45,990 bases of DNA. Origin: a bacterium. GTDB taxonomy: Bacteria; Patescibacteriota; Minisyncoccia; UBA6257. A program made the position numbers and the translations under genes. Positions 1 to 41,737 of the stretch are shown one piece after another; the stretch's first letter is position 1; each line of letters starts with the position of its first letter. The notes below the pieces were generated by a model that saw nothing but the letters and a program-made list of their open reading frames with translations, ran no database searches and was not told the origin of the DNA. The stretch spans positions 1 to 45,990 of the forward strand of contig JAGGZF010000032.1 in assembly GCA_021162155.1 (NCBI GenBank), given 5' to 3'.

Positions 1-74
1 AGTTTGGTCTAAATTAGGTAAGATAATAGAAAGTATATTGGATTGTTGTAGGGAGTAATGATTTATTAAAAGTA

Positions 75-1124
75 ATGAGGACAGAAGAATTTGATTATTA
101 TCTTCCTCCGGAACAGATAGCGCAGGAACCGGTTGTTCCTCGAGACCATTCTAAACTTTTAGTAGTAGATAGAAAGAATCAGATTATAGAGCACAAAAAG
201 TTTTTTTATGAGATTGTAGATTATTTAAGTTCCAAAGATGTATTAGTATTCAATGATACTAAAGTAGTTCCTGCGCGTATTAGAGGAAAGAAAATTTCTA
301 CTGGAGGAAAAGTAGAACTTTTGCTTTTAAGACCAAAAGGTGCTTCTTTTATTGATTTTCAGCAGTGGCCTAAAAGATGGGTAGCCATAGGGAAACCAGA
401 ACTGAGGGAGGGAACAGAAATAGAGTTTGGACAAGGATTAAGATGTCGAGTTAAGGAAAGAAAAAATTATGAAAGAGTTATAGAATTTAATGAACAAGGA
501 GAAGAATTAAAAGAACACCTTCTTCAGATAGGAGAAGTGCCGCTCCCTCCTTATATAAAGAATCCTACAGATTTATCTTTTCGAAACTATCAGACAATAT
601 ATGCTAATAAAGAAGGTTCTGTAGCTGCCCCTACGGCAGGATTTCATTTTACTCCGGAACTTCTGAAGAGAATTAAAGAATTAGGAGTACAAATAGAATA
701 TATAACCCTACATATAGGATTAGGAACTTTTTTGCCGGTGAAGACAGAGAATATAGAGGATCATCAAATGCATTCAGAGTTTTTTATTATAGATAAAAAG
801 ACAGCAGAGAGTATTAATAAGGCGAAAAAAGAAGGGAAAAGAATCATTGCTGTAGGAACAACAGTAGTAAGAGCCTTGGAATCTAGCAGCACAGAAGATG
901 GTTATCTTTTACCTGGCCAAAACTGGACCACCCTCTTTATCTATCCGGGGTATAAATTTAAAATTGTGGATAGTTTAATTACTAATTTTCATCTCCCCCG
1001 GTCAACACTTCTAATGTTAGTTTGTGCTTTTGCAGGAAAAAAGTTAATTTTTAGGGCCTACCAGGAGGCACTTCGGAAGAAATATAGATTTTTTTCTTTC
1101 GGAGATGCTATGTTTATTAGATAG
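75..1124 (+). CDS. queA: S-adenosylmethionine:tRNA ribosyltransferase-isomerase
   Basis: 349-aa ORF with the FDYYLPPEQIAQEP N-terminus and the PLPPYI, GTTVVRALES and FSFGDAMFI motifs typical of QueA. It lies 20 nt upstream of tgt. Confidence 0.93.
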   Translation: MRTEEFDYYLPPEQIAQEPVVPRDHSKLLVVDRKNQIIEHKKFFYEIVDYLSSKDVLVFNDTKVVPARIRGKKISTGGKVELLLLRPKGASFIDFQQWPKRWVAIGKPELREGTEIEFGQGLRCRVKERKNYERVIEFNEQGEELKEHLLQIGEVPLPPYIKNPTDLSFRNYQTIYANKEGSVAAPTAGFHFTPELLKRIKELGVQIEYITLHIGLGTFLPVKTENIEDHQMHSEFFIIDKKTAESINKAKKEGKRIIAVGTTVVRALESSSTEDGYLLPGQNWTTLFIYPGYKFKIVDSLITNFHLPRSTLLMLVCAFAGKKLIFRAYQEALRKKYRFFSFGDAMFIR

Positions 1125-15631: not shown

Positions 15632-18600
15632 ATGTGCGGAATTATTGCTTACAAAGGAAAAGGGGACGCAGTTGAAATTGTGATGAATGGCTTAAAACAT
15701 CTGGAGTATAGAGGATATGATTCTGCTGGTCTTTGTGTAATTTCTTCTAATAAGATGCTGCTGATTAAAAAGGTGGGGAAAGTGGAGAACTTATTGCAAG
15801 AAATCAAAAGAAGACAAGTACAAGGTGAAACAATAGAAGGAAAAGTTGGAATTGGTCATTGCCTTCATCCAAATACTTTAGTCCAACTTTCTGATGGTAG
15901 AATTGTATATATTAAGGATGTTATTGATGGAGAAAAAATTGTTAATTTGAATACAGAGAATCTTGTATTGGAGGATGGAGAAGTAAAAGTTTCTCAACAT
16001 AAATCCCCTCCTTATCTCTATTATGTGCGAACGCCACTTTCTGATTTTATTAGTACCTCGAATCATAAAAATTTAGTCTGGGAAAAAGATAAAATAGTAG
16101 AAAAATTAACCAAAGATTTAAAAAAGAAAGATCTCTTAATTTTTCCTAAACGAATTAAAACATCAGAGACAAAGCCCCTTCGGTTTAAACCGATCTTTTA
16201 TAAAAGATATTATACTCTTACTTCTTACGGAGCTTCGTTCCTTAAGAGCCAAATTAGTGCTGTTGGATTAAATAAAGTATCCAGCAAAGTTGCTGTTTCT
16301 CCTGCTTATTTAGGTCATATTGTAGCCAATGATAGGAACTTTAGAGAAGACAAATTGGAATTATTATATAATTTTTTTGGTAAAAGTTTTGAGGAAGCGC
16401 TTTACGATGCTAAATATCCTCATCTAAAACCGGTAAATACAGTTCACGGGAAATTCATAAAGTTGCCAGAGTTTAGTAACTCCCGACTAATGCAAATTCT
16501 GGGTTATTTTATAGGTGATGGTTATGCAGGGAAAAGATCATTGAGATTTAAAGATATAGATGTAAGCAATTTAGAAGTATATAAAGGGTTGATAGAAAAG
16601 GAATTTGGTGTAAAGGGTCGTATTGCTTCTCAAAGAGATACAAAAGCTATGCTTTTAGAATTCAATAGTACTTATTTATGTAATTGGCTAAAAGTAAATG
16701 TTATTCAAAATAAGCATAATTTTCTCTCCACTATTGGGCAATTACCAGATAGTCAATTAGCAGCGTTTATAAGGGGTCTGTTTGATGCTGAAGGGTGTGT
16801 GAATTTAGTTTCTAAGCAGTTATCTCTAAGAATGATTGATGAATTTTTAATTCGCTCTTTGCAATTATGGCTTCTGCGATTTGGGATTATTTCTTCAATT
16901 ATGATAGAGCCACCTAATTCTAAACACAATAAACTTAATAGGACTTTTAGACTGACTACTAGCAATAAGGAATCAATAGAGTTATTTAAAAAACATATAT
17001 CATTTAGTGGTGAGAAGAAAAGAGAAAAACTTACTGGCTTACTTAAATTACTTGGTGATAAACATTTTAGCTTCAAGATTCATCCATTTTCTCAACAAAT
17101 AATTCTAACTCGGGTAAAAGATGTTCAGCGGATACCCTCAGATACAAAATTTGTTTATGATTTAGAGGTAAAAGGAAACCATAACTTTTTAGCCAATGCT
17201 ATTTTTACTCACAATAGTCGCTGGGCTACGCATGGAGCAGTGACAGAAATAAACGCTCATCCTCATTTTTCTTGTGATAAAAATATTTATGTAGTTCATA
17301 ATGGTATTATTGAGAATTACGAATCCCTAAAGAAAGAATTAGAGAAGAAAGGACACCACTTTGTTTCTCAAACAGATACTGAAGTAATTCCTCATTTAAT
17401 AGAAGAATACCGGAAGAGATATTCTTTTCTTTCGGCTTGCCAGAAGGCATTTAAGCGTCTGAAAGGACTCTTTGCCTGTGTGGTTTTAGAAAGAAAGAGC
17501 GGAGAAATAATAGGGGCGAGAAATGGTTCTCCTTTAGTAATGGGATTGGATAAGAAGGGATTTTATTTGGCTTCTGATGTCCCTGCCTTTTTAGATAGGA
17601 CTAATAAAGTAATTTTTATTAATGACGGAGAGATGGTGTATTTGAAAAATGACGGAACTTATCAATTATATAATTTTATAGAGAATAAAAAAATTACCAG
17701 AAAAATTAATACAATTCACTGGACTAAAGAATCAGCGGAGAAAGGAAAATATCCTCATTTTATGCTAAAGGAGATAATGGAGGTTCCAGAAGTGATACAA
17801 AAAGCGCTTTATCAGAAGGAAAAAGATTTAAGGTCTGCTGCGAATTTAATAAAGAAGAGTTCTAAAATTATTTTTGTGGGGTGTGGAACTGCTGGTCATG
17901 CCGGTTTAGTAGGGAAGTATTGGTTTTCCTCTTTACTTAAAAAGGATTGTGATTTTATTACTGCTAGTGAACTTAGTTATTTTGAAGGAACTTTGCGTAA
18001 GAATACTCTGTTAATAGCAATTTCTCAGTCAGGAGAAACTGCTGATGTGTTAGAAGCAGTTAAAAGAGCCAAAAGTAGGGGAGTGAAAGTTTTATCTCTG
18101 GTAAATGTTATGGGCTCTACTCTGACTAGGATTAGTGATAAAGTTTTAATGGTTCATGCGGGCCCGGAAAAATGTGTTCTAGCCACTAAAAGTTATATAG
18201 CCCAATTAACTGTTCTTCTCTTGTTGGTTTCTCTACTGATGGGACAAAAGCAAAAAATTGTTCGCCAATTAAAACAACTTAGTCACTTTCTGGCTGTTTT
18301 TCTAAAAGAAAAGCCATCTTCTCTAAAAAGATTAGCGCATTTGCTACAGAAAAGTGAGCATCTCTATATTATAGGAAGAGGGCTGAATTATCCCACTGCT
18401 TTAGAAACTGCTTTAAAAATTAAAGAAGGAACTTACATTCATGCGGAGGCGTTTGCTGGCGGAGAATTGAAGCACGGAGTTATTGCTTTAATAGAAAAGA
18501 ATACTCCCTGTTTAATTCATTTTGCTAAGGATGGAGAGGAAACTAATACTTTAATTAATGCTATGGAACTGAAAAGCAGAGGAGGATATTTAATAGGTTT

Positions 18601-18778
18601 TGGACCCCGAGAGATGAAAGAACTGAATAAGTTTATAGAAATAAAAGCAGTTAATCCTTTATTTTCTCCTTTGGCTAATATAGTTCCTGTCCAATTATTG
18701 GCTTATTATTTGGCAGTGAAAAGAGGTATTAATCCTGATAGACCTCGTAATTTAGCCAAGAGCGTTACTGTGAAATAA
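15632..18778 (+). CDS. glmS: Glutamine--fructose-6-phosphate aminotransferase, intein-containing precursor
   Basis: 1048 aa. It has the Ntn MCGI start, RGYDSAG, GIGH|...|SRWATHG..NAHPH, two SIS domains (SQSGETAD) and a C-terminal NLAKSVTV. Removing residues 77-528 leaves 596 aa, which is normal GlmS length. Confidence 0.93.
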   Translation: MCGIIAYKGKGDAVEIVMNGLKHLEYRGYDSAGLCVISSNKMLLIKKVGKVENLLQEIKRRQVQGETIEGKVGIGHCLHPNTLVQLSDGRIVYIKDVIDGEKIVNLNTENLVLEDGEVKVSQHKSPPYLYYVRTPLSDFISTSNHKNLVWEKDKIVEKLTKDLKKKDLLIFPKRIKTSETKPLRFKPIFYKRYYTLTSYGASFLKSQISAVGLNKVSSKVAVSPAYLGHIVANDRNFREDKLELLYNFFGKSFEEALYDAKYPHLKPVNTVHGKFIKLPEFSNSRLMQILGYFIGDGYAGKRSLRFKDIDVSNLEVYKGLIEKEFGVKGRIASQRDTKAMLLEFNSTYLCNWLKVNVIQNKHNFLSTIGQLPDSQLAAFIRGLFDAEGCVNLVSKQLSLRMIDEFLIRSLQLWLLRFGIISSIMIEPPNSKHNKLNRTFRLTTSNKESIELFKKHISFSGEKKREKLTGLLKLLGDKHFSFKIHPFSQQIILTRVKDVQRIPSDTKFVYDLEVKGNHNFLANAIFTHNSRWATHGAVTEINAHPHFSCDKNIYVVHNGIIENYESLKKELEKKGHHFVSQTDTEVIPHLIEEYRKRYSFLSACQKAFKRLKGLFACVVLERKSGEIIGARNGSPLVMGLDKKGFYLASDVPAFLDRTNKVIFINDGEMVYLKNDGTYQLYNFIENKKITRKINTIHWTKESAEKGKYPHFMLKEIMEVPEVIQKALYQKEKDLRSAANLIKKSSKIIFVGCGTAGHAGLVGKYWFSSLLKKDCDFITASELSYFEGTLRKNTLLIAISQSGETADVLEAVKRAKSRGVKVLSLVNVMGSTLTRISDKVLMVHAGPEKCVLATKSYIAQLTVLLLLVSLLMGQKQKIVRQLKQLSHFLAVFLKEKPSSLKRLAHLLQKSEHLYIIGRGLNYPTALETALKIKEGTYIHAEAFAGGELKHGVIALIEKNTPCLIHFAKDGEETNTLINAMELKSRGGYLIGFGPREMKELNKFIEIKAVNPLFSPLANIVPVQLLAYYLAVKRGINPDRPRNLAKSVTVK
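15860..17215 (+). mobile_element. Class 1 intein with LAGLIDADG homing-endonuclease domain, inserted in glmS
   Basis: 452 aa. Block A is CLHPNTLVQLSDG and block B is TSNH. The LAGLIDADG motifs are LGYFIGDGYAG and FIRGLFDAEGCV. Blocks F/G are VYDLEVKGNHNFLANAIFTHN, followed by a +1 Ser. The insert lies in frame between GIGH and SRWATHG. Confidence 0.88.
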
Positions 18779-19976: not shown

Positions 19977-20049
19977 GCCTCCGTAGCTCAATTGGTAGAG
20001 CAACAGCCTTTTAAGCTGGGGGTTGCGCGTTCGAGTCGCGCCGGAGGCA
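19977..20049 (+). tRNA. tRNA-Lys (anticodon UUU)
   Basis: Hand-folded cloverleaf. The acceptor stem is GCCTCCG/CGGAGGC, the D arm is GCTC-AATTGGTA-GAGC, and the anticodon arm is ACAGC-CTTTTAA-GCTGG (anticodon TTT). The T arm is GCGCG-TTCGAGT-CGCGC and the discriminator is A. No CCA is encoded. Confidence 0.9.
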
Positions 20050-20075
20050 CTACTTCACTATTTTTCTGATAGGAG

Positions 20076-20086
20076 TGTGGTATAAT
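20076..20086 (+). promoter_or_regulatory. Extended -10 promoter element TGTGGTATAAT
   Basis: Lies 35 nt upstream of the secD ATG. The same 11-mer recurs upstream of gltX at 44145-44155. Confidence 0.45.
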
Positions 20087-20121
20087 ATTAGAAATATTGG
20101 GTATTTTCTAAAAAATAAAAA

Positions 20122-21372
20122 ATGAAAAAGAATGTTATTCTCTTAGCTTTAGTTTTGGGGGGAGCTGTCTTAATGTTCCTTTTTATATATCCTCGTTTTT
20201 CTCAAAAGGATTTTAGTTATGGCTTGGATATTTATGGAGGGACAGTTTTAATTTATGAAGCAGATTTACATAATATATCTCCAGCGGAGTATTCTTCTGC
20301 TATGAATGGCCTTAAAGATGTAATTGAGAGACGGGTGAATTACAGCGGAATTAAAGAACCGCGAATTTCAGTAGAGAAAATAGGGGAGCACTGGCGTCTA
20401 AGAGTGGAGTTGGCAGGAATAAAAGATGTGGATAAGGCGATTAAAATGATCGGTCAGACCCCTTATTTAGAATTTCGAGAATTAAAGAATAATCCCGAGG
20501 GTACTGATAAAGACAAAGAAGAAAAATTGGAGTTCCAACCGACTATTTTAACAGGAAAATATTTAAAGAGAGCCGAATTAGGATTTGATCCCACTACCTC
20601 TTTGCCGGTGGTAAATCTTCAATTTAATTCAAAAGGTACTAAAATTTTTGCTGAACTTACTAAAAAAAATCTTAATAAACCATTGGCTATTTACTTAGAT
20701 GGACAGCCAATCTCTATTCCTGTAGTTAGAGAAGTTATTACTTCAGGGAGAGCGCAAATCTCCGGAAAATTTACTGTGGCAGAGGCAAGGACTTTAGTCC
20801 AAAGATTAAATCAAGGGGCTTTACCGGTTCCTATTCATTTAATCTCACAGCAAACCATAAGTCCTATTTTGGGCAGTCAATCTTTACTCAAAATTAAGAA
20901 AGCTGGTCTTTGGGGTTTTGTGGGTATCATTATCTTTATGATTATAGTGTATGGTTATGAGGGATTTCTGGCCTCTTTATCTTTAATAATCTATTTGTTA
21001 ATATCCTTAACTATTTTCAAAGCGCTTCCGGTGACTTTAACTCTTGCCGGGATTACTGGTTTTATTTTATCAATAGGAATGGCAGTAGATGCCAATATTT
21101 TGATATTTGAATATAGTAAAGAAAGATATCAGCAAGGTATCTCTAGAAAAGCAGCGCTTAGAGAAGGGTTTAAAAATGCCTGGCCGGCTATTAGGGATTC
21201 TAATATTTCTACTATTATTTCTGCCATTATTCTCTACTATTTTACTTCTTCTTTAGTACGTGGTTTCGCTTTGACTCTGGCTATAGGTACTGCTGTTAGT
21301 ATTATTACTGCTATTTACATTACCCGGCTGTTCATAGAAACCTTGTTGCCGGGAAGAAAAAGTAATCCTTAA
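20122..21372 (+). CDS. secD: Protein translocase subunit SecD
   Basis: 416 aa with an N-terminal TM, a periplasmic domain (LDIYGGT) and a C-terminal six-TM block with the MAVDANILIFE motif. secF follows. Confidence 0.9.
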   Translation: MKKNVILLALVLGGAVLMFLFIYPRFSQKDFSYGLDIYGGTVLIYEADLHNISPAEYSSAMNGLKDVIERRVNYSGIKEPRISVEKIGEHWRLRVELAGIKDVDKAIKMIGQTPYLEFRELKNNPEGTDKDKEEKLEFQPTILTGKYLKRAELGFDPTTSLPVVNLQFNSKGTKIFAELTKKNLNKPLAIYLDGQPISIPVVREVITSGRAQISGKFTVAEARTLVQRLNQGALPVPIHLISQQTISPILGSQSLLKIKKAGLWGFVGIIIFMIIVYGYEGFLASLSLIIYLLISLTIFKALPVTLTLAGITGFILSIGMAVDANILIFEYSKERYQQGISRKAALREGFKNAWPAIRDSNISTIISAIILYYFTSSLVRGFALTLAIGTAVSIITAIYITRLFIETLLPGRKSNP

Positions 21373-21386
21373 AGTAATGGAATAAA

Positions 21387-22274
21387 ATGATTGATTTTAT
21401 AAAAAACAGAAAAATATTTTATATAATTTCAGGGATTCTGATAATATCATCTATCTTTGTTATTTCTTTTTGGGGATTAAAATGGGGAGTAGATTTTAAG
21501 GGCGGTTCGTTATGGGAGATAAGTGTTCCTAATTCTTTAACTGTTAAGGATAAGATTGCTGATTACCTTCAAGGGTCATCTGTGGGCCAAACTACTGTTC
21601 AAGTGACAGGGGAGGGAAATTTGATTTTTAGATTCTCCTCTATAAGTGAAGAAAAACACCAGCAATTGCTTCAAGACCTGAAAAGACAATTTCCTGATTT
21701 AGAAGAAAAAAGATTTGAAAGTATAGGTCCTGTGATAGGCAAGGAGTTAACACGAAAGATGATATGGGCATTTCTGTTGGTAGTTTTAGGAATTCTTCTG
21801 TACTTAAGTTATTCTTTCTCTCAATCTTTTCATAACATCCCCTCCTATAAATATAGTCTTTTAGCTATATTATGTTTGGTCCATGATACATTGATAGTGG
21901 TAGCGGTTTTTGCTGTGTTAGGAAGATTTTTAAACTGGGAAGTGAATTCTGATTTTATCGTAGCAATTTTAACTGTCTTAGGATATTCTGTGCACGACAC
22001 AATAGTTGTCTATAATAAAGTAAGAGAAAACTTGCGTCTTTTCTCTAAGGAACCCTTAGATGTTATAATAAATAAGAGCATTAGGCAGACCCTAATAAGA
22101 TCAATTAATACCTCTCTGACCACTATTTTCCCTTTAGTAGCGTTATTTTTAATGGGTCCTCATAGCATAAAAGCGTTAGTATTAGCAATGGTGGTAGGGG
22201 TAATAGCTGGCACTTATTCTTCATTAGCTTTAGCCACTTCTTTGTTGTATGATTGGAACCGGAGAAGCAGATAA
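21387..22274 (+). CDS. secF: Protein translocase subunit SecF
   Basis: 295 aa with GVDFKGGS, GYSVHDTIVVYNKVREN and six TM segments. Confidence 0.9.
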   Translation: MIDFIKNRKIFYIISGILIISSIFVISFWGLKWGVDFKGGSLWEISVPNSLTVKDKIADYLQGSSVGQTTVQVTGEGNLIFRFSSISEEKHQQLLQDLKRQFPDLEEKRFESIGPVIGKELTRKMIWAFLLVVLGILLYLSYSFSQSFHNIPSYKYSLLAILCLVHDTLIVVAVFAVLGRFLNWEVNSDFIVAILTVLGYSVHDTIVVYNKVRENLRLFSKEPLDVIINKSIRQTLIRSINTSLTTIFPLVALFLMGPHSIKALVLAMVVGVIAGTYSSLALATSLLYDWNRRSR

Positions 22275-22277
22275 TAT

Positions 22278-22306
22278 TTGACTATTAGAAGAAAATTTGC
22301 TTTAAT
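22278..22306 (+). promoter_or_regulatory. Sigma-70-type promoter TTGACT-N17-TTTAAT
   Basis: TTGACT at 22278-22283 and TTTAAT at 22301-22306. It lies in the 64-nt gap after secF, about 32 nt upstream of the HTH-protein ATG. Confidence 0.4.
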
Positions 22307-22338
22307 ATTAATAATAGTCAAATCAGAGCAATATAAAT

Positions 22339-23430
22339 ATGAAAAAAACACCTAAAGAATTAGCATTAGAGGTTATCTCTATACTCAATAAAAGAAATCA
22401 AAATATAATAAAAAAACGTTTTGGGCTGATAGATGGAACTAATAGAACATTAGAGAGCATAGGTAGGGATTATGGGGTAACTAGAGAACGCATTCGTCAG
22501 ATTGTAGAGGCCTCATTGGAAAACCTTAAAAAATCTTCTCAAATTTCTCTGCTGCGGGATTTTTGGAGAACTGCGGCAAAAGTTTTGCAAAAAACTAATG
22601 GAGTAGAAACAGAAAAAGGTTTTTTGGAAAAATTAGTTTCTATATTAGGGGTTAGTCCCAGCCAGATAGCAGCGATAAAATTTTTATTGTGTCTTTCTCC
22701 TGAGATAAAATTGGAACCAGAAACGAAACAACATAAAAGTTTTTGGCGAAGGAAATCATTATCTCCTGCGCATATAGCGAATATTGTTTCTAAGATAGAA
22801 GAATATTTTCAGAAGCAGAAAAGAGTTTTCCGGCCGGAGGAAATGATGAAGTGGGCAAAACAAAATATTAGCCCCAAAATAACTTTAGCAGAATTAGAGG
22901 TTTATCTGCTTCTCTCTCCTAAAATTGGGCGAAATATTTTTGGGGAGTATGGATTATTGCAATGGCCAGAAATTACTCCTCGAGGAGCCAAAGACAGGGC
23001 CTATATGATGTTGAAACATTATCGTAAGCCACTACATTTTTCTAAAATAGCAGAACGTATTAATGAGTTGCAAGATACAAAAGCAGTGGTTCCTACTCAT
23101 CACTCTTGGCTTAAGAAAATTCAAGTTCAGACAGTTCATAATGAATTAATTAAAGATCCCCGTTTTGTTCTTATAGGTAGAGGAATATATGCTCTAAGAG
23201 ATTGGGGTTATCAGCCGGGCACTGTGGCAGATGTTATTAAGGATGTATTAAAGCATGCTGGCAGGCCTCTTACCGCCAAGGCCATAATACGGCAAGTAAA
23301 GAAAAAACGGCTTGCCAGAGATACTACTATTATACTCAATCTTAATAACAAGAAATTATTTAAGAAGCTTCCCGGCCATCGTTATACTTTAGCGCATTCG
23401 GCATCCAAACCTAAGGTTTTGGAGATTTAA
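22339..23430 (+). CDS. DNA-binding protein with a sigma-70 region-4-like HTH and two HARE-HTH-like modules
   Basis: 363 aa. The N-terminal [26 protein letters not shown] is very similar to RpoD region 4.2. Two later segments look HARE-HTH-like (RNAP delta N-terminal type): PLHFSKIAERI...DPRFVLIGRGIYALRDWGY and RPLTAKAIIRQV...KLPGHRYTLA. Confidence 0.6.
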   Translation: MKKTPKELALEVISILNKRNQNIIKKRFGLIDGTNRTLESIGRDYGVTRERIRQIVEASLENLKKSSQISLLRDFWRTAAKVLQKTNGVETEKGFLEKLVSILGVSPSQIAAIKFLLCLSPEIKLEPETKQHKSFWRRKSLSPAHIANIVSKIEEYFQKQKRVFRPEEMMKWAKQNISPKITLAELEVYLLLSPKIGRNIFGEYGLLQWPEITPRGAKDRAYMMLKHYRKPLHFSKIAERINELQDTKAVVPTHHSWLKKIQVQTVHNELIKDPRFVLIGRGIYALRDWGYQPGTVADVIKDVLKHAGRPLTAKAIIRQVKKKRLARDTTIILNLNNKKLFKKLPGHRYTLAHSASKPKVLEI

Positions 23431-24686
23431 TGAGGGATTTTTTTAATGTTTTTTCTGCAGTTTATTATCTCCAGCGGATATTATATCTTTTCTGGATTAT
23501 TTTAGAGACAATTATAAGAGAGTTGTGGTGGTTAATAGTTCTTTTTATTGCTGGGACTATTTTTTTAAATTTACAGCGAAAATATAAAAAAGAGGAAAAG
23601 AAAAAGAAAGAAGAAATAAAAGATTGGGTTACTTTGGAAATAGTAGTGAATCCCTATATTACAAGCGGCGCTAAAGCTATGGAACAGGTGTTTAGTGGAA
23701 TTTATTCTTTACCCAAAGGATATGTAAGTTTGGAATTAGTGGGCATTGAAAAAGAGATAAGGTTCTTTGTGAGGGTTCCTCGAGACTATAAAGGATTGGT
23801 GCTTTCTCAGTTTTATGCTCAGTATCCAGATTTGGAAATCAAAGAGGTCCAGGATTATTTTCTGAAATATCCTCCATCTCTGCCCGATAAAAACTGGGAT
23901 ATTTGGGGCACTGAAATGAAACTTATACAATCTGACGTCTATCCTATTAAAACCTATTCTTCTTTTGAAGAAACAAAAGAGGAAAAAAGTGTAGATACTT
24001 TATCTAGTTTAATAGAAGGGATTTCTCAATTAAGGAAAGAAGAATTGCTATTGATTCAAATTATTATACAACCCTTAACTGGTGATAAAGCAAAGGAATG
24101 GTTGGAGAAAGGGGAAAAAGAAATAAATAAACTCTCCGGGAAAAAAGAACCCCCAAAGATTACTTGGACGGACTGGGTGATAGCTTTTTTCAAAAATTTA
24201 TTAATAGGTGTAGCAGTTCCTCCTGTATGGCCCGGAGAGAGCAAAACAGAAGCATCTGCTCCATCAGTGCCCTTGACCAAACGAGAGGTAGTTCAGAAAA
24301 TAAGCAAGAAAATAGAACAATTACCCTTTTTAACCGGAATCCGTCTCTTTTATCTTGCCCCTAAAGATTGTTTTAATGAGATAGCTATAGGGACCTGTTA
24401 TGCTTTCTTAAATCAATTTACTATTAGCCACTTAAATGGGTTCAAGGTTAATAAGGATAGTTCTACCAAAGAAGAAGGAAAGATATTTGTTAAACGAAGG
24501 TTGTTTATAAAGAAACTTAACTTTTATAAGTCCGTTATTAACAGAAAAAAAACTAAAGAGTTATTTGTATTAGTTCCTGAAGAATTAGCGTCTGTTTACC
24601 ATTTTCCTTCTTCTAAAGTCAAATCTCCCTCTCTAACAAAGACACTTTTCAGAAAAAGTGAGCCGCCTCCTAATCTTCCTACTTAA
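23430..24686 (+). CDS. Membrane protein of unknown function (two N-terminal TM helices plus a ~330-aa domain)
   Basis: 418 aa. Hydrophobic segments ILYLFWIILETII and LWWLIVLFIAGTIFL are followed by a KKEEKKKKEE linker. I see no recognisable catalytic motif. The start overlaps the upstream stop (TAATG). Confidence 0.5.
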   Translation: MRDFFNVFSAVYYLQRILYLFWIILETIIRELWWLIVLFIAGTIFLNLQRKYKKEEKKKKEEIKDWVTLEIVVNPYITSGAKAMEQVFSGIYSLPKGYVSLELVGIEKEIRFFVRVPRDYKGLVLSQFYAQYPDLEIKEVQDYFLKYPPSLPDKNWDIWGTEMKLIQSDVYPIKTYSSFEETKEEKSVDTLSSLIEGISQLRKEELLLIQIIIQPLTGDKAKEWLEKGEKEINKLSGKKEPPKITWTDWVIAFFKNLLIGVAVPPVWPGESKTEASAPSVPLTKREVVQKISKKIEQLPFLTGIRLFYLAPKDCFNEIAIGTCYAFLNQFTISHLNGFKVNKDSSTKEEGKIFVKRRLFIKKLNFYKSVINRKKTKELFVLVPEELASVYHFPSSKVKSPSLTKTLFRKSEPPPNLPT

Positions 24687-24711
24687 GCTTATTTAAATTT
24701 AAACTTTAATT

Positions 24712-26346
24712 ATGTCTGAAATAACCTATATAGGAGTAACTAATTTTCGGGATAATTTTCAGCGATTCGGGATAAAAACTGATGACCGAAGAAGACATCT
24801 TTATATTATAGGAAAAACTGGAGTAGGTAAGACCACTATGTTGGAAAATATGATTATTCAAGATATATCCAACAGGCATGGTTTAGGCGTAATAGATCCT
24901 CACGGAGAACTAATTCAGAGAATACTACATTTCATTCCTAAAGACAGAATAAAGGATGTAATATACTTTAACCCCAGCGATATAGAGTGGCCTATTGCTT
25001 TTAATGTTATAGAAGAAGTGCCCCGAGAATGGAGACATCTAGTTGCTGCTGGTTTAATGGGGGTTTTTAAGAAAATTTGGCCGGATGTATGGTCTGCCCG
25101 AATGGAATATATTCTGAATAATGCTCTACTGGCTCTCTTAGAGTATCCGGGATCTACTTTACTGGGAATAAATCGCTTGCTTTCCGATGCTGATTATCGG
25201 AAAGCAGTTATAGAGAAGATTACTGATCCTACTATAAAAGCATTTTGGCAGAGGGAATTTGCTAAATATCATGAGCGTTATGCCACTGAAGCTGTTGCTC
25301 CTATTCAGAATAAGATAGGGCAGTTTATATCTAATCCTCTAATCAGAAATATAGTGGGACAAAAGGAGACCAAAATAGATTTTAGGGAAATTATGGATGA
25401 GGGAAAAATATTTTTGGGAAATTTATCTAAAGGGTCAATAGGAGAAGAAAATTCTGCTCTTTTGGGAGGATTATTAATAACAAAACTTCAATTAGCGGCT
25501 ATGTCTAGGGTGGATATAAGAGAAGAAGAGAGAAGGGATTTTTATCTCTATGTAGATGAGTTTCAAAATTTCTCTACTGAATCCTTTGCCAACATTTTTG
25601 CCGAAGCCAGAAAATATCGTCTAAATCTTACTTTAGCTCATCAGTATATAGCCCAATTAAATGAGAAAGTAAGAGATGCTATTTTCGGAAATGTGGGGAG
25701 CTTGGTTTCTTTTCGGGTTGGACCGGAAGATGCCGAGTTTTTAGAGAAGTATTTTGTTCCAGAATTCTCTAAAGAGGACTTAATGAATCTGCCTAATTTT
25801 CATTTTTATATAAAGTTGATGATAGATGGTAATCTTTCAAAAGGATTTTCAGGAATGAATATTCCTCCCAGCGCTCTTCCTTCTGTCTCTTATATTCAGG
25901 ATATTATTCAGTATTCCCGCCAGCATTATGCTACTCCAGTGAGGGAAGTAGAACAAGAAATAGCACATTGGCATTATTTAGATTTCTCTTTCTCTGCTCC
26001 CAGAAAAAAGGAAAAAAAGAAAGGTTTTTCAGAAGGATGGGAGGCCGTCTGTAGTCGTTGCGGGAAAAAAATTATTGTTCCTTTCAGGCCTGACCCTCGG
26101 AGGCCTGTTTATTGTGAAGAGTGCCTTAAGATAGTAAGAGCAGAACAGGCTGGGAAAAAAGCTAATCCCAGAAAATCTTCTCTTTCGTCTCTAAAAGAGG
26201 TATCTCCGGGTGGGATTATAGAAAGGGTTAGTCAACGTGGAGTTTCTTCTTCAGAAAGGAATAGTCCCAAAGTGATACCCCGGGAGGATACTCTAAGGAA
26301 AACGCTAAAGACAATTATTAGGTCTCAGCAAAAGAAAGGCAATTGA
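24712..26346 (+). CDS. VirD4/TraD-like (FtsK-HerA superfamily) P-loop NTPase with C-terminal CxxC-x17-CxxC zinc ribbon
   Basis: 544 aa. Walker A is GKTGVGKTT (24811-24834) and Walker B is FYLYVDEFQNF. RKYRLNLTLAHQ is also present. There is no TM segment. The C-terminal zinc ribbon is CSRCGKKIIVPFRPDPRRPVYCEEC (26050-26124), followed by a basic, Ser-rich tail. Confidence 0.6.
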   Translation: MSEITYIGVTNFRDNFQRFGIKTDDRRRHLYIIGKTGVGKTTMLENMIIQDISNRHGLGVIDPHGELIQRILHFIPKDRIKDVIYFNPSDIEWPIAFNVIEEVPREWRHLVAAGLMGVFKKIWPDVWSARMEYILNNALLALLEYPGSTLLGINRLLSDADYRKAVIEKITDPTIKAFWQREFAKYHERYATEAVAPIQNKIGQFISNPLIRNIVGQKETKIDFREIMDEGKIFLGNLSKGSIGEENSALLGGLLITKLQLAAMSRVDIREEERRDFYLYVDEFQNFSTESFANIFAEARKYRLNLTLAHQYIAQLNEKVRDAIFGNVGSLVSFRVGPEDAEFLEKYFVPEFSKEDLMNLPNFHFYIKLMIDGNLSKGFSGMNIPPSALPSVSYIQDIIQYSRQHYATPVREVEQEIAHWHYLDFSFSAPRKKEKKKGFSEGWEAVCSRCGKKIIVPFRPDPRRPVYCEECLKIVRAEQAGKKANPRKSSLSSLKEVSPGGIIERVSQRGVSSSERNSPKVIPREDTLRKTLKTIIRSQQKKGN

Positions 26347-29240: not shown

Positions 29241-30668
29241 ATGTCTCAAACAAAAAATACAAGAACAAAAAATACAAGAAGAACTAAAAAGCTTAAGAAG
29301 AAAAAGAGCTCTCGACGTACAGTTTCTTCTAATCAGAGTAGAAAAAAGAACAAAAAGAAAAACCGGAAAAACAGAGTTCTTAGAATCAAGAAGAAGCAGA
29401 AAGTGAAATCTTATAAAGCCACAAAGAAAAATACAAGGAAACAAACTCGAAAGAAAAGAACAGCTCCGAAGAAGGTAAAGAAGGCAAGGAAGGTAAAGAA
29501 AGTAAAGAAAACAAGGAAAGCAACTTCCAAGAGCAAAGCAAGAAAGATTGCAGCGAAACCCAAAATTAGCCGGAAAGAAAAAGAAATTGCTAATAATATT
29601 CAAGAGTTGATAAAGAGGGGTCGCTCTCGTGGTTTTATTACTCAAGATGAGATATTAAAATTCTTCCCTACTATTGAGAGAGACCTCTCTCTATTGGAGC
29701 GTCTCTACGATAAATTGGCAGAAGAGAATATTGAAGTAGTAGAAAGAGGGGATTTACTTCTACCCCAGAAAGAAGTTACAGAAAAGGAATTACAAGAAGC
29801 AGTCAAGATAGATAAAAGACTAAATTTAGCAGATAATGTTCAAACTTATTTACGGGAAATAGGGAGGATACCCCTACTTACACCAGAACAAGAAAAGGAA
29901 TTAGCTAAAAGGATAGATCAAGGAGATGAACAGGCTCGTCAAAAAATGATAGAGGCAAATTTGCGTTTAGTGGTTTCTATTGCTAAAAGGTATATAGGCA
30001 GAAGCAGGAACTTGTCTTTTCTGGATTTAATACAGGAAGGAAATATAGGATTATCAAAAGCAGTAGATAAGTTTAATTATAAAAAAGGATTTAAATTTTC
30101 TACTTATGCTACTTGGTGGATTCGTCAGGCAATTACTAGAGCGTTAGCTGACCAAGGCAGAACCATCAGAATTCCAGTACATATGGTAGAAACCATAACC
30201 AAATACCTGAAGGTAAAAAGGAGCCTTTCTCAGGCGCTGGGCAGAGAGCCTACTCCGGATGAGATAGCTTTAGAAATGAATAAACCAGTAAAAGATATAT
30301 TATATTTGATGAAAATTTCCAGAGACACTTCTTCCTTAAATCAGCCGGTAGGAGATGAGGATAGCGGAAGCGAAGTAGGTGATTTTGTGGCTGATACTAA
30401 AACTATTACTCCTGAAAAATATGCTACCAGAAAAATACTTAAAGAGTTACTAGAGAAAGTGCTATCTACTCTTACTGAGAGAGAAAAAAGAATAATAGAG
30501 ATGCGTTTTGGATTGAAAGATGGAATTAGTCACACTTTGGAGGAAGTAGGTAGAGAGTTTAATGTTACCAGAGAGAGAATTAGACAGATAGAGGCAAAAA
30601 CTTTGGAGAGATTAAAAGAATTACCCGAAGCTAAAAAATTAAAAGAATTTCTGAAGTCCATAGAATAA
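29241..30668 (+). CDS. rpoD: Primary-like RNA polymerase sigma-70 factor with polybasic N-terminal extension
   Basis: 475 aa with [57 protein letters not shown] and [20 protein letters not shown]. Of residues 1-115, 58 are K/R. Confidence 0.9.
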
Positions 30669-33856: not shown

Positions 33857-35257
33857 ATGCCCAAGAAAAAGAAAAGAAAAATAATAGATATATATCCTCC
33901 TTCTTCAATAAAAAAGAAAGCTTCTCAGGAAGTTTTTATTAAGAAGGTATCTGGAGAGAAGCAAGAAAAGGCAAAACAAGAAAGACAGCAGGGTACTTAT
34001 CCGGCGGGACAAGTTAGGGAGGAAGGATTTTCGTCAGAATGGTATTCCCGTTTTCCTCCCCGAGCAACAGAAGAAGAGAAAAAAGAGAGAAAGAAAATAT
34101 TTTCTGTGAGAAATTTAATGGGTTTAGGAGCTGTTTTACTAATAATAGGATTTTATTATTTAGGATTCATAGTGTTGGCGAAGGCAGAGATAGATATAAA
34201 AACTATAAAATCAGAAATTCCTTTTTCCGGTAATATCTTAATAGATAGCAATGTAGCGAAAATAGATTACCAAAAGGGCGTTATTCCGGGAACAAAATTT
34301 ATATTTCAGAAAAAAGTAGAGAAAACTATAAAGAGCACCGGGAGAGGTAAAGATGAAAGAAAAGCCAAAGGCACCGTCACTTTATATAATGCTTATTCTA
34401 CCTCTCCTCAAATTTTAGTAGCGACAACTCGTTTAGCAACTCCTGATAATAAGATTTATCGGTTAGATTCCCGAATAGTAATACCCGGAGCTAGGATAGA
34501 GGCAGGTAAAATAGTCCCGTCTAAAATAGATGTGGCAGTAACAGCAGATAAACCGGGACCTGAATATAATATAGGCCCTTGTGAATTACCAGATTGTAAA
34601 TTTACTATAGTGGGATTTAAAGGGACTTCTAAATATAAGAAATTTTATGGAACATCCAGTAAACCTATGACAGGAGGAGCATCTGCTTCTATGCCTATGA
34701 TTGTGGCAGACGATGTGAAAAATGGTGAAGAGGAGGTATTAAAAGAGATGGCAGATGAGATAAACGAGGAAATCAAAAAACGGATTCCGCCCGATATAAC
34801 TATTTTAGAAGAAGCAAAAAGCGGTCTTAAATTAACTAAATTATCCAAAGATGCTGAGGTAGGAGATTTTAGAGAGTCGTTTTCTATTACTGGGCAGGGT
34901 GAAGTAATAATTATAGGTTTTAAGAAGGAAGATTTAATTAATTATATTCAGGAGAACATAAAGAAGGATATAAGTGATAATCAGGAGTTTTATCAAGACC
35001 CAGATATTCAAATAAAAGTAATACAAACAGATTTCGCTAAAGGATATCTTAAAGCCCGGATAGAGAGCAAGCAGAAAATAAGAAGTAAATTGTCACCCGA
35101 AGCCATAAAAGACAAGATAAAGGGGTGTTCTATAAAAGAACTCAAGGAGGCATTACAGGAATTTGAGGGTATTGAACAAATGAATTGTCGTTTAAGTCCT
35201 TTTTGGATAAAGAGAGTGCCCCGGGATAGTCGTAAAATTAAGGTATCTATTGACTAA
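33857..35257 (+). CDS. Membrane-anchored protein of unknown function (polybasic N-terminus, single TM, large C-terminal domain)
   Basis: 466 aa. The order is MPKKKKRKIIDIYPP..., a K/E-rich stretch, a TM segment (LMGLGAVLLIIGFYYLGFIVLA) and then a ~370-aa domain. I recognise no motif with confidence. Confidence 0.45.
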   Translation: MPKKKKRKIIDIYPPSSIKKKASQEVFIKKVSGEKQEKAKQERQQGTYPAGQVREEGFSSEWYSRFPPRATEEEKKERKKIFSVRNLMGLGAVLLIIGFYYLGFIVLAKAEIDIKTIKSEIPFSGNILIDSNVAKIDYQKGVIPGTKFIFQKKVEKTIKSTGRGKDERKAKGTVTLYNAYSTSPQILVATTRLATPDNKIYRLDSRIVIPGARIEAGKIVPSKIDVAVTADKPGPEYNIGPCELPDCKFTIVGFKGTSKYKKFYGTSSKPMTGGASASMPMIVADDVKNGEEEVLKEMADEINEEIKKRIPPDITILEEAKSGLKLTKLSKDAEVGDFRESFSITGQGEVIIIGFKKEDLINYIQENIKKDISDNQEFYQDPDIQIKVIQTDFAKGYLKARIESKQKIRSKLSPEAIKDKIKGCSIKELKEALQEFEGIEQMNCRLSPFWIKRVPRDSRKIKVSID

Positions 35258-40345: not shown

Positions 40346-40378
40346 CAATAATATATTAAAAATGGGGCTTATTTTTTA
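40331..40378 (+). terminator. Rho-independent terminator between convergent genes
   Basis: A perfect 14-bp stem pairs AAGCCCCATTTTTA (40331-40344) with TAAAAATGGGGCTT (40357-40370) around a 12-nt loop. A T6 run follows at 40372-40377. The stem overlaps the sigma-factor stop codon. Confidence 0.65.
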
Positions 40379-41737
40379 CCAACTTACTGATTGTATCCCT
40401 TCATTATCTAAATAGAAAATTCTTCGGAGCGAGTTATCTACTTGGAATTGTTTATCTTTTATATTCTGTGTTACTAAGAACGCTTTTTTCTGGTTGCGGT
40501 CATAAATATAGAGGGTTTGGCCCTGACAAAATAATAGATATTCTTGGTTATAGAACCACTGAGGCATTTTGTCTGAGTGAAGCGCTAACCCCTCTTTTTT
40601 AGAAGTGAGGACATCATAAATAAAAGAATTATTACCCTTTTTTCTAACAAGAAGAGAGGTGTTTTCTGGAGAGAGTTGAAAATCAGTTACCTCTCTTGCT
40701 ATTAATTGGGGCACATCTTTTTTAGTGATTAAGTAAAGATTTTGAGAGGAATCCAGAACAAGAAGATAATTTGAATTATTTAGAACGAAAGGATGTATAA
40801 GGGCGGGATTTTTACGGTCGATATGGAAAACGAAAAGAGATTCTTGCTGTATGTTTTTGGTGTTAAAGTTATAACTGAATAGTATTCCCTGATTGGAGAA
40901 ATAATATAATTTTGAACCAGAGGGGGTTAGGAATAAAACTTTTTGGTCTACGAGTTGCTCTAAATTATCTTCTAAAAATTCATAATTATATATTGCTTGT
41001 TCGGTTTGGATAATTAAACTGTCTTCTTGATGGGGAGAGAAAAATACTTTATGTATTGTAAATTTTTTTGTTTCTGTTAGTTTTTCTTTAAATAACTTCT
41101 GGAGATAATGTTGTAGTTCTATAGTAGATTTAGAGATGCTGCCAAGGTCTTCGAAATGAATAGAGCCAAGATAAAGATAATATTTTTGTCCTACTTGATA
41201 TATTATCCTTTTGTCTTCTTTATCTAAGATAATTGGGGGCGAATTAGTAGTATTTACCTCTTTACTTTGTTTTGTAGACCTGTCAAATTCGAATATATGA
41301 TATTTAGTTTTTGAAGCAGCAACTTCTTTGGTTATGTAAATAATTTGATTATTGTCTGGCGATAATTGAAAATCAATAATTTGCTTGTTTTTAATTAAAG
41401 TATGAGGTGACCATTTGACAGGAAGAAGATGGAAAGAGATTTTAGTAAGAGCATTCCTCTTTACAGATACTTTCTTATCTTGGGAATAAAAACCGGGGCA
41501 GGTGGCAGTGATAATATAATCTTTAGGAATAAGTTTGATTTTCTTAACTCCTCGTCTAAGAGAATAAATTTTATTGTCTATATTTAATATTGCCGAGGGA
41601 GGATAGACTCTAATTTCTACGGTTCCTTTATTAAATAGGGCAAGATTAGGAGCGGTATTAGAAGAAGTAGAGATAAAATAAAATAAACCTATGCAGGTAA
41701 TAATTGAAATAATATATATAGAGAAACGAATATTCAT
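40376..41737 (-). CDS. PEGA-domain protein with TolB-like beta-propeller repeats, membrane anchored
   Basis: 453 aa. An N-terminal TM segment is followed by a PEGA-like segment (VEIRVYPPSAILNIDNKIY...ITATCPGFYSQDKKVSV). Recurring DFQLSP(D/E)N-type propeller-blade motifs follow. Confidence 0.5.
   Translation of the reverse strand: MNIRFSIYIISIITCIGLFYFISTSSNTAPNLALFNKGTVEIRVYPPSAILNIDNKIYSLRRGVKKIKLIPKDYIITATCPGFYSQDKKVSVKRNALTKISFHLLPVKWSPHTLIKNKQIIDFQLSPDNNQIIYITKEVAASKTKYHIFEFDRSTKQSKEVNTTNSPPIILDKEDKRIIYQVGQKYYLYLGSIHFEDLGSISKSTIELQHYLQKLFKEKLTETKKFTIHKVFFSPHQEDSLIIQTEQAIYNYEFLEDNLEQLVDQKVLFLTPSGSKLYYFSNQGILFSYNFNTKNIQQESLFVFHIDRKNPALIHPFVLNNSNYLLVLDSSQNLYLITKKDVPQLIAREVTDFQLSPENTSLLVRKKGNNSFIYDVLTSKKEGLALHSDKMPQWFYNQEYLLFCQGQTLYIYDRNQKKAFLVTQNIKDKQFQVDNSLRRIFYLDNEGIQSVSW

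Follow-up and report, generated by a model that had tools for sequence, protein, structure and literature searches.

The closest described systems are the type IV coupling proteins (T4CPs) of the VirD4/TrwB/TraD type, such as R388 TrwB, H. pylori Cag-beta and Legionella DotL, in which a TM domain is joined to a nucleotide-binding domain (NBD) with an inserted all-alpha domain. A further comparison is offered by proteins in which a TM segment, a DUF8128 domain and an ATPase are fused, namely a Patescibacterial paralogue of ~850 aa, T4CPs of Embleya/Streptomyces and Bacillus plasmids, and phage G gp156 / SPO1 gp27.4 (PHROG 5156), the phage versions having no TM helix. VirB4 ATPases (R388 TrwK) have their overall architecture in common with the products of the locus described below, an N-terminal membrane-associated domain followed by a C-terminal RecA-like ATPase. 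In Patescibacteria, orphan T4CP homologues have previously been reported: 5,713 homologues occur in 2,918 of 3,035 genomes, with only 148 near virB4, and ~80% of Patescibacteria hold a T4SS elsewhere in the genome, usually without its own T4CP (PMC12102498).

The locus analysed here consists of three genes, A, B and C, located downstream of secD and secF (Table 1); on a near-identical contig, this secDF pair matches SecD_1st, SecDF_P1_head and SecD_SecF_C in Pfam. The ORFs, motifs and junctions are as given in the preliminary description: the stop of A overlaps the start of B (TAATG), and 25 nt separate B from C. Annotation of the window, meaning the whole 46-kb stretch of DNA, covers most of its larger ORFs, two being without a Pfam match, and all annotated genes are core genes; as had been stated, they include no relaxase, VirB4, pilin or integrase. 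The term "stand-alone" applied to the module holds locally, but not genome-wide, given the T4SS present elsewhere in most Patescibacteria (PMC12102498).

Table 1. Positions of the genes, domains and control elements of the A-B-C locus.
Feature	Nucleotides	Residues	Strand	Remarks
secD	20122-21372		+	conserved upstream neighbour of A-B-C
secF	21387-22274		+	conserved upstream neighbour of A-B-C
Intergenic control region	22276-22323		.	between secF and gene A
Inverted-repeat arm ATTTGACTATTA	22276-22287			perfect, 12 nt; the repeat as a whole spans both hexamers
TTGACT	22278-22283			first hexamer, read from sequence
TTTAAT	22301-22306			second hexamer; spacer 17 nt
Inverted-repeat arm TAATAGTCAAAT	22312-22323			perfect, 12 nt
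Gene A	22339-23430		+	363 aa
A, sigma-70 region 4	22354-22566	about 6-76	+	Pfam/NCBIfam
A, middle region		77-215	+	no domain assigned
A, HARE-HTH 1	22984-23205	216-289	+	E 8e-7
A, HARE-HTH 2	23218-23343	about 294-335	+	E 5e-5
Gene B	23430-24686		+	418 aa; DUF8128 (PF26449)
B, TM helix	23520-23573	about 31-48	+	single robust helix
B, Lys/Glu linker KKEEKKKKEE			+	between TM helix and cytoplasmic domain
B, cytoplasmic alpha/beta domain		64-390	+	~350 aa
B, conserved C-terminal tail			+	EELAxxYHFP...EPPxNLP
Gene C	24712-26346		+	544 aa; TM-less T4CP-like ATPase
C, NBD and all-alpha domain	24778-26016	23-435	+	
C, zinc ribbon CxxC-x17-CxxC	26041-26127	444-472	+	zf_Tbcl_2 / TIGR04272
C, basic Ser-rich tail		473-544	+	amphipathic helix at end
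Genuine RpoD	29241-30668			encoded in same window

Like the VirD4/TrwB/TraD proteins, gene C has Walker A and B motifs and an NBD into which an all-alpha domain is inserted; its matches exceed the Pfam thresholds of TrwB_AAD_bind (residues 23-335, E 2e-11), T4SS-DNA_transf and TraG-D_C, with a further match to DUF87. The motifs GKTGVGKTT, YLYVDEFQNF and RKYRLNLTLAHQ are found; Walker A, Walker B and RKYR...HQ are intact and invariant among 30 homologues, in which ~130 columns are invariant. Its AF2 model (pLDDT 83) matches TrwB best in Foldseek (E 4e-12, TM 0.62-0.66), with Cag-beta, DotL and HerA next. Profile and structure matches agree on a TrwB/VirD4 fold and not a non-translocase family, in keeping with the earlier assignment as a TM-less NTPase of the FtsK/HerA-VirD4/TraD type. 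In contrast to classical T4CPs, no hydrophobic segment is present in gene C or in any of 120 homologues, the N-terminal part is encoded separately, by gene B, whose ~350-aa DUF8128 domain those proteins do not have, and the zinc ribbon and basic Ser-rich tail, both present as described, are additional; they would fit RNA equally as well as DNA. Gene C further differs in having no relaxase, oriT, channel or mating-pair-formation (MPF) genes nearby and in being a vertically inherited core-genome gene.

Homologues of gene B carry PF26449 (DUF8128), a family for which a literature search found no papers, and no known unrelated function is attached to it. The two N-terminal TM helices proposed for gene B are only partly confirmed: the helix at about residues 31-48 stands, whereas segment 7-25 is borderline hydrophobic and not conserved in the family. 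The charged linker is present. Using Foldseek, the seven best PDB matches of the AF2 model (pLDDT 86) are TrwK/VirB4 (E 2.5e-5 to 8e-4), and phage G Gp156 and the VirB4-like Gp155 (E 1e-7 for the latter) are matched as well; among the homologues sampled, only VirB4-type matches are seen, not TrwB, HerA or FtsK. The cytoplasmic domain is thus predicted to adopt a fold like that of the VirB4 N-terminal domain, a likeness at the level of the fold only and with low TM scores (about 0.37); sequence-profile comparison of gene B with VirB4 gives no similarity. For gene C, both sequence and fold place T4CPs nearer than the C-terminal domain of VirB4.

The main new result is that B and C each correspond to one half of a single ~850-aa TM-DUF8128-ATPase protein. 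Such proteins can be aligned with B+C over their whole length and have its two domains in unchanged order; the break falls exactly at the inter-domain linker, with no residues lost at the junction. Over the 824 positions of PHROG 5156, gene B matches 75-209 and gene C 408-821 (E 3e-66 for gene C); by hhalign, the B family matches residues 29-321 of phage G gp156 (prob 98.6, E 5e-16) and residues 104-393 of the Embleya plasmid T4CP (prob 90.8, E 1e-6). In one Patescibacterium a fused B'-C' ORF lies 5 kb away from the A-B-C module, and its 120 top matches listed are nearly all about 840-860 aa and nearly all carry PF26449 together with a domain of T4CP type (PF10412 or PF02534, for instance). 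A single strong TM helix stands at the N-terminus of 116/120 fused paralogues, while none of 120 gene C homologues has any; conversely, of the split homologues listed, 117/120 carry the PF23477 zinc ribbon, against none of 120 fused ones.

The fused protein is a sister paralogue of the split pair in the same lineage. Between gene C and the fused version of Patescibacteria, identity amounts to 43-45%, and a quick NJ tree, which carries no bootstrap support, joins the split C clade with that of the fused Patescibacterial proteins as sister groups. The more distant fused relatives are SPO1/G-type phage proteins and the coupling proteins encoded by conjugative plasmids of monoderms (Actinobacteria, Bacillus), with VirB4-like, PrgI/VirB3, NlpC/P60 and replication-relaxation genes as neighbours; the split copy, unlike these, does not adjoin replication-relaxation or VirB4-like genes. 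It alone has gained the C-terminal zinc ribbon with basic tail, and it is almost always preceded by gene A, with secDF as a further difference. The earlier proposal that gene B supplies a membrane anchor in trans finds strong support in the existence of fused proteins collinear with B+C; gene B is, however, more than an anchor, as it provides the N-terminal half that the coupling protein would otherwise lack.

The sigma-70 region-4 HTH and the two HARE-HTH modules reported in gene A are both recovered by profile searches. Sigma70_r4 matches residues 13-65 (E 3e-11), alignment of the family profile with SigA/RpoD region 4 reaches E 2e-20, and PDB sequence matches are to sigma region 4 without exception; within the TRERxRQ recognition helix, T48, R49, E50, R51, R53 and Q54 are invariant among 28 homologues. 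Regions 2 and 3 are absent, and as gene A does not have regions 1-3 of group 1 sigma factors it cannot be a sigma factor. The HARE-HTH resembles the N-terminal domain of the RNAP delta subunit (TIGR04567, E 2e-7), but gene A scores below the delta cut-off and has no acidic tail. Gene A could be nothing more than the operon regulator. The TTGACT-N17-TTTAAT sequence described as the operon's own element is present upstream, although missing from the scanner list because its second hexamer does not have A at position 2. Promoter-like sites in this AT-rich region number 16 against 16.2 expected from shuffles; with site frequency at chance level, its function as the promoter of A-B-C is plausible and putative. 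The surrounding inverted repeat is kept in 2 of 70 loci of relatives, i.e., it is not conserved, while TTGAC/GTCAA is ~3-fold enriched within 200 nt upstream of gene A homologues.

A-B-C is syntenic in 61/69 species-level loci, and gene B is carried by at least 588 GTDB species. The secDF genes, initially named as neighbours, are not incidental: in 45 of 66 species loci, secF and gene A are co-oriented and directly adjacent, with secF upstream (median gap ~88 nt). This conserved linkage is not accounted for by a DNA-handling role. The other flanks in relatives are housekeeping genes, and no T4SS or ICE genes flank the module here or in the relatives' loci examined; together with the synteny, this supports the view of a chromosomally fixed unit and not a mobile-element T4SS. 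Gene C is 50-73% identical across classes, and its median identity across species is 58%, versus 32-35% for genes A and B.

Alternatively, the Patescibacterial T4SS, encoded in another part of the genome and mostly close to oriC, may use the module in trans as its substrate receptor (coupling protein), with A as an adaptor or translocated substrate; this reading is possible but doubtful. Homologous fused T4CPs occur within genuine conjugation clusters, T4CP genes are commonly unlinked from MPF genes, and the VirB4/VirB3/VirB6/TrsD clusters of ~80% of Patescibacteria almost never have a local T4CP (148/5,713; PMC12102498); in conjugative loci, moreover, a transferred protein is typically encoded beside the T4CP, a position occupied in the present module by gene A. 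However, more genomes have T4CP homologues (96%) than have VirB4 (80%), the module adjoins virB4 in no locus examined, and its actual linkage is to secDF. The t4cp homologue of Ca. Southlakia epibionticum is non-essential whereas the T4SS genes are essential, although redundancy between two paralogues could mask a need for t4cp. Least credible is the idea that the module has no function of its own and is what remains of a conjugative element or prophage that integrated and is decaying: although plasmids and Bacillus phages carry its nearest relatives from outside Patescibacteria, the identity of gene C, its invariant columns, its intact catalytic motifs, the number of species and the conserved synteny among core genes effectively refute it, and the module shows no anomaly in base composition and no integrase, repeats or relaxase around it.

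Two further proposals appear improbable, to a similar degree. In one, the module would stand in functionally for ComFA as the cytoplasmic motor of a DNA-uptake system that includes ComEC and type IV pili, and A would handle the incoming DNA. The basis for this is solely analogy: the CPR core com genes listed are ComEC, DprA and ComFC, without ComFA (PMC10633639), C resembles ComFA as a membrane-tethered translocase with a zinc-binding module, and com genes are non-essential in co-culture, in parallel to t4cp; yet linkage to com genes is seen in no locus examined, no T4CP-type hexamer is known to act through ComEC, and the -35-type specificity of gene A has no obvious role in uptake. In the other, the module would couple transcription or RNA to the membrane and Sec, A binding RNAP or promoters through sigma region 4 and the delta-like HARE-HTH while a B-C ring tethers or remodels near SecDF. 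[quoted passage not shown]

The explanation we consider probable is that Patescibacteria inherit A-B-C vertically as an operon, usually arranged secD-secF-A-B-C, which encodes a fissioned T4CP paralogue and a dedicated DNA-binding partner. The cytoplasmic domain of gene B would pack onto C, as does the N-terminal domain in the fused proteins and VirB4, its conserved C-terminal tail leading into the first beta-strands of C, and a C hexamer would thereby be tethered at the membrane's inner face. By hydrolysing ATP, C would thread a substrate, either nucleic acid or nucleoprotein, through its pore, and the zinc ribbon and tail would add nucleic-acid or partner contacts. Gene A may fill the position of the relaxase or accessory protein adjacent in conjugative systems, its -35-type recognition helix and two winged helices selecting or delivering DNA, and it probably also autoregulates the operon. 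On this view, A-B-C encodes a relaxase-less, vertically inherited coupling-protein paralogue of ultra-small (CPR/Patescibacteria) bacteria.

Comparison with proteins that carry both halves in one chain shows that genes B and C, as judged from their sequences, together represent a fissioned DUF8128-type type IV coupling protein (T4CP) that is chromosomally fixed, held under strong purifying selection and predicted to be catalytically intact. The decisive result is the existence of such fused proteins, which serve as a Rosetta stone for B and C. In the phrog_5156 family (824 positions), to which phage G gp156 (825 aa) and SPO1 gp27.4 (906 aa), among others, belong, B matches positions 75-209 (E 4e-10) and C matches positions 408-821 (E 3e-66), and the B-family profile aligns with residues 29-321 of gp156 (prob 98.6, E 5e-16), the EELAxxxHxP motif included. 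In the fused family DUF8128 lies directly N-terminal to the T4CP-like ATPase and ends in EELAxxxHxP...PPxxxP, and B and C present the same arrangement in trans; the fused proteins are single polypeptides, whereas B and C are two ORFs 25 nt apart, a split that recurs in 67 of 74 related loci.

Patescibacteria also hold a fused paralogue. In the comparison contigs L079/L093, an 856-aa ORF with DUF8128 N-terminal to the ATPase lies 5 kb away from the secD-secF-A-B-C of the same genome. The best 120 matches to this ORF are nearly all ~840-860 aa long and carry PF26449 together with a T4CP-type domain (PF10412 or PF02534, for example), many also having PF12696; a single strong N-terminal TM helix is present in 116 of these 120, and the zinc ribbon in none. 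A concatenate of B and C aligns end to end with the fused proteins, the C-terminal EPPPNLPT of B corresponding to AAPINIP and the N-terminal SEITYIGVTNFRD of C to TEGIVIGKNIFRG in the fused form, and this alignment places the fission point exactly at the predicted inter-domain linker. The sequence identity of C is 43-45% with the fused Patescibacterial paralogue and 24-31% with the forms from plasmids and phages; in a quick neighbour-joining tree, drawn without support values, the split and fused Patescibacterial clades are sisters, outside which lie the plasmid/phage T4CPs, then TrsK/TrwB, and then VirB4. The published count of 5,713 T4CP homologues in 2,918 Patescibacterial genomes (PMC12102498) fits two paralogues per genome. 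In both genomes examined for its surroundings, the fused paralogue is preceded by a conserved ~160-aa protein with no Pfam match (contigs L093, 9498-9995, and L094, 9510-9992; common C-terminal motif ...IPGxNKFFLEQxAKIKADKI), which may be its partner, and by corA on the opposite strand.

The plasmid-borne fused homologues sit in recognisable conjugation loci. On an Embleya plasmid the gene order is PrgI/VirB3, XF1762, VirB4-like ATPase, an 812-aa T4CP with a DUF8128-like N-terminal half (prob 90.8, E 1e-6), replication-relaxation protein and NlpC/P60, and in Bacillus subtilis a plasmid-encoded 913-aa protein precedes a replication-relaxation protein and TcpD/TcpE-type transfer genes. In phages, a Replic_Relax protein comes next after SPO1 gp27.4 (locus L091, gp27.9-gp27.3), and a VirB4-like ATPase precedes gp156 in phage G (locus L092, gp155-gp156). 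From these plasmid and phage neighbours, the ancestral context of the DUF8128-T4CP family is taken to be the transfer or processing of DNA together with a nicking enzyme, a context which both Patescibacterial copies lack. Relaxases are rare in Patescibacteria, with 109 in 3,035 genomes (PMC12102498). The DUF8128-T4CP protein of SPO1-like and G-like Bacillus phages is TM-less, and in SPO1 its gene adjoins genes for the relaxase-like Replic_Relax protein and an actin-like partition protein; lytic Bacillus phages thus encode a conjugation-type DNA-processing pair. A separate observation concerns a Sulfitobacter mediterraneus plasmid (NZ_CP081110.1; locus L095, 5983-7170), which encodes a 395-aa C-like ATPase, 42% identical to the window C and nearer to it than any plasmid or phage T4CP; it is devoid of N-domain and zinc ribbon, has transposase and recombinase genes as neighbours, and may be a fragment horizontally transferred from a Patescibacterium.

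Gene C had been read in the preliminary description as a TM-less, coupling-protein-like ATPase with a terminal zinc ribbon, and profile-HMM searches bore this out. Pfam thresholds were passed for TrwB_AAD_bind (43.8 bits vs a cut-off of 20.5), T4SS-DNA_transf, TraG-D_C and DUF87, the CxxC-x17-CxxC ribbon was matched by zf_Tbcl_2 / TIGR04272 at residues 444-472, and no hydrophobic segment was found in C or in any of 120 homologues. The motifs GKTGVGKT and YLYVDEFQ, invariant in 30 C homologues, are the Walker A and B of an FtsK/HerA-clade P-loop nucleotide-binding domain (NBD). The AF2 model (pLDDT 83) has the soluble part of TrwB as its closest fold (Foldseek E 4e-12, TM-score 0.62-0.66, about 410-435 aligned columns), followed by Cag-beta, DotL and HerA, and contains an all-alpha insertion in the NBD, a helical block at ~residues 105-229 between Walker A and Walker B; these fold matches point to a T4CP-fold motor, all-alpha domain included. 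T4CPs carry an N-terminal TM domain in the same polypeptide, whereas C has none and the TM helix lies on the separate protein B; they are also encoded with relaxase and/or mating-pair-formation (VirB4) genes, unlike C within the contexts annotated. Several other identities were considered and rejected. As for a VirB4-type C-terminal ATPase, C is matched by T4CP models and not by AAA_10 / P-loop_TraG, and NCBIfam VirB4-like matches are weak (E 1e-3 to 4e-3). The FtsK/SpoIIIE family PF01580 covers the P-loop alone (E 0.05, 13.5 bits vs a cut-off of 24). PADLOC assigned A-B-C to no defined anti-phage system, returning domain-level matches of A to MzaA via sigma region 4 and of C to mad8 and HerA, and none for B.

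Of the two TM helices proposed for B, one is robust (~residues 31-48) and is followed by the Lys/Glu linker; the first is marginally hydrophobic and is not conserved in the family. The AF2 model of B (pLDDT 86) shows a long N-terminal helix and then alpha/beta domains, and its seven best PDB matches are all R388 TrwK/VirB4 (E 2.5e-5 to 8e-4, TM-score ~0.37). No TrwB, HerA or FtsK chains are among its matches, which suggests that what B resembles is the N-terminal domain specific to VirB4. Among viral models, B matched phage G Gp156 (E 1e-17) and, separately, the VirB4-like Gp155 (E 1e-7). An hhalign comparison of the B family with single sequences of TrwK/VirB4 and of pSK41 TrsD and TrsE gave nothing significant, the B profile had 0 matches to PDB sequences, and a Pfam scan of 35 B homologues, using a copy without PF26449, found no match, the VirB4 N-terminal domain CagE_TrbE_VirB included. 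As all sequence-level searches were negative, the link to VirB4 is one of fold, and the models suggest kinship with its N-terminal domain at that level only.

The domains proposed for A were recovered by profile search, namely Sigma70_r4 (E 3e-11) and two HARE-HTH modules (residues 216-289 and ~294-335); the middle region, residues 77-215, had no match in domain searches. PDB matches of the A-family profile are to sigma region 4 only (E down to 2e-20). In 28 homologues that are elsewhere ~35% identical, residues T48, R49, E50, R51, R53 and Q54 are invariant, and these form the TRERxRQ helix, the part of sigma-70 region 4.2 that touches the -35 element in group 1 sigma factors. Only region 4 is matched in A (residues 6-76) and regions 1-3 are absent, so A is not a sigma-70 family sigma factor; all NCBIfam sigma models scored far under their cut-offs. 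The RNAP delta subunit was likewise rejected (TIGR04567, 31.3 bits vs a cut-off of 42): delta has one N-terminal HARE-HTH and an acidic C-terminal tail, whereas A has two HARE-HTH modules at its C-terminus, which is basic.

The three co-oriented ORFs lie exactly where they had first been placed, and the TAATG overlap of the A stop with the B start and the 25-nt spacing of B and C are likewise confirmed.

Coordinates of the three module genes in the window
Feature	Position	Basis
gene A	22339-23430	ORF call
gene B	23430-24686	ORF call
gene C	24712-26346	ORF call

A promoter of their own had also been proposed for the three genes. The TTGACT-N17-TTTAAT element is indeed present at 22278-22306, but shuffled versions of this AT-rich sequence contain promoter-like sites just as often, and the promoter is therefore a plausible reading only; promoter and terminator scans gave counts not above chance. 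The putative promoter is flanked on both sides by a 12-nt perfect inverted repeat, ATTTGACTATTA / TAATAGTCAAAT (22276-22323), with a -35-like TTGAC on both arms, which could be a candidate operator for A in this lineage. As a conserved operator the repeat is ruled out, being kept in 2 of 70 loci. Within 200 nt upstream of A homologues, TTGAC/GTCAA is ~3x enriched.

The Patescibacteria, which have tiny genomes and an existence on other cells, account for a large part of bacterial diversity. B homologues belong to Patescibacteria/CPR, with source names including Paceibacterota, Minisyncoccia and Parcubacteria, and have PF26449 (DUF8128) as a precomputed Pfam domain. In GTDB sampled at one genome per species, a single scan for a conserved motif placed B relatives in at least 588 species, across lineages spanning Paceibacteria and ABY1-type groups (Kuenen-, Magasanik-, Kerfeld-, Buchanan-, Doudna-, Morani-, Nealson-, Wolfe- and Yanofsky-bacteria among those named), and an exhaustive profile search gave 4,042 B cluster representatives at 50% identity. 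The C family numbers at least 8,000 candidates; its members are TM-less and 490-610 aa long, and 117 of the 120 homologues listed have the zinc ribbon. Synteny was scored in 80 species-level loci, with loci that had room for the neighbour as denominators. A lies directly upstream of B in 68/74 and C directly downstream in 67/74, and the full A-B-C order is found in 61/69. Relative to the window proteins, C is 50-73% identical (median 58%), A ~35% and B ~32%, and ~130 columns are invariant among 30 C homologues, including Walker A, Walker B and an RKYR...HQ block. The secDF genes, mentioned earlier as neighbours, are part of the arrangement: in 45 of 66 loci secF immediately precedes A in the same orientation (median gap ~88 nt), making secD-secF-A-B-C the conserved block. 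Genes downstream of the module differ among loci, and the annotated flanks other than secDF are all housekeeping genes. Several MAGs with the Patescibacterial module (L033, L049, L052, L056, L085) bear the labels Gammaproteobacteria, Binatia or Pacearchaeota, probably through mislabelling or faulty binning.

Apart from A-B-C, the window is made up of core chromosome (queA, tgt, priA, def, fmt, enolase, glmS, efp, tRNA-Lys, secDF, dgkA, dnaG, rpoD, alaS, ribosomal proteins, rpoA, ftsW, murG, gltX). The view that no relaxase, VirB4, pilin or integrase accompanies the module stands for the annotated ORFs of the 46-kb window, and no relaxase or VirB4 gene occurs within 8-10 kb of it in five annotated related contexts. 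GC content is flat throughout, and a mobile-element origin was rejected on flat composition, core-gene flanks and the lack of a tRNA-flanked island enclosing the module. The tRNA-Lys sits upstream of secD at a strain-level breakpoint: near-identical strains show ~99% nucleotide identity from position 20111 on and total divergence just upstream of secD (19977-20111; counterpart L001, 1-6690), where the window has glmS, efp and mgtC and the other strains a cohesin/Big-domain surface-protein cluster. The pattern resembles that of a variable island or strain-level breakpoint next to the tRNA. Elsewhere, GlmS (15632-18778, 1048 aa, GATase + SIS) includes an intein that bears a LAGLIDADG homing-endonuclease domain, by Pfam on the identical protein, and at E <= 0.001 Pfam matches neither of the two large ORFs at 33857-35257 and 40376-41737 (- strand; 466 and 453 aa).

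In the proposed mechanism, the cytoplasmic domain of B would complete a C hexamer and anchor it at the membrane, and C would move a nucleic-acid or nucleoprotein substrate, with its zinc ribbon, basic tail and terminal helix likely adding nucleic-acid or partner contacts. A would act as the DNA-recognition partner in place of a relaxase or accessory protein, and may also autoregulate the operon. The B-C motor might serve a type IV secretion system (T4SS) encoded elsewhere, which is attractive because such clusters almost never encode a T4CP; however, T4CPs occur in 96% of Patescibacterial genomes and VirB4 in 80%, and t4cp was dispensable in Tn-seq (PMC12102498). The main text of the Cell 2023 Tn-seq paper makes no mention of VirD4 or T4CP. 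A motor acting in DNA uptake might fill a place left by ComFA, which is missing from the listed CPR core com genes (PMC10633639), and the secDF linkage might be the sign of another, membrane- or secretion-related role.

As a long shot, the split T4CP and A could be a device by which epibiotic Patescibacteria carry out relaxase-independent transfer, or the secDF linkage could reflect a new coupling of a T4CP motor to Sec. In such a transfer device, A would be a pilot protein or effector passed by the B-C motor to the T4SS, and after entry into the host it could bind the RNAP flap or -35 promoter elements, or bring DNA along.

Orphan T4CP homologues of Patescibacteria are already published and DUF8128 is in Pfam. 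T4CP-like genes unlinked from T4SS are kept in ~96% of Patescibacterial genomes, and the only published comment on them is possible exaptation (PMC12102498). The T4SS papers surveyed do not mention the fission that separates B+C from the fused form, gene A as a partner, the block with secDF, the VirB4-N-terminal-like DUF8128 fold or the plasmid/phage kinship, and full-text searches found no literature on DUF8128 or on HARE-HTH in Patescibacteria. The orphan genes now have a defined anatomy: they comprise a fused and a split paralogue, each with a DUF8128 domain predicted to have a VirB4-N-terminal-like fold, and the split copy is locked in a secDF-A-B-C block with a promoter-element-type DNA-binding protein. 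DUF8128 itself is now tied to the T4CPs encoded on plasmids of Actinobacteria and Bacillus, and to SPO1/G-type phage proteins. Paralogue redundancy may account for the apparent dispensability of t4cp, and a vague observation on orphan T4CPs becomes a set of hypotheses testable in genetically manipulable Saccharibacteria.
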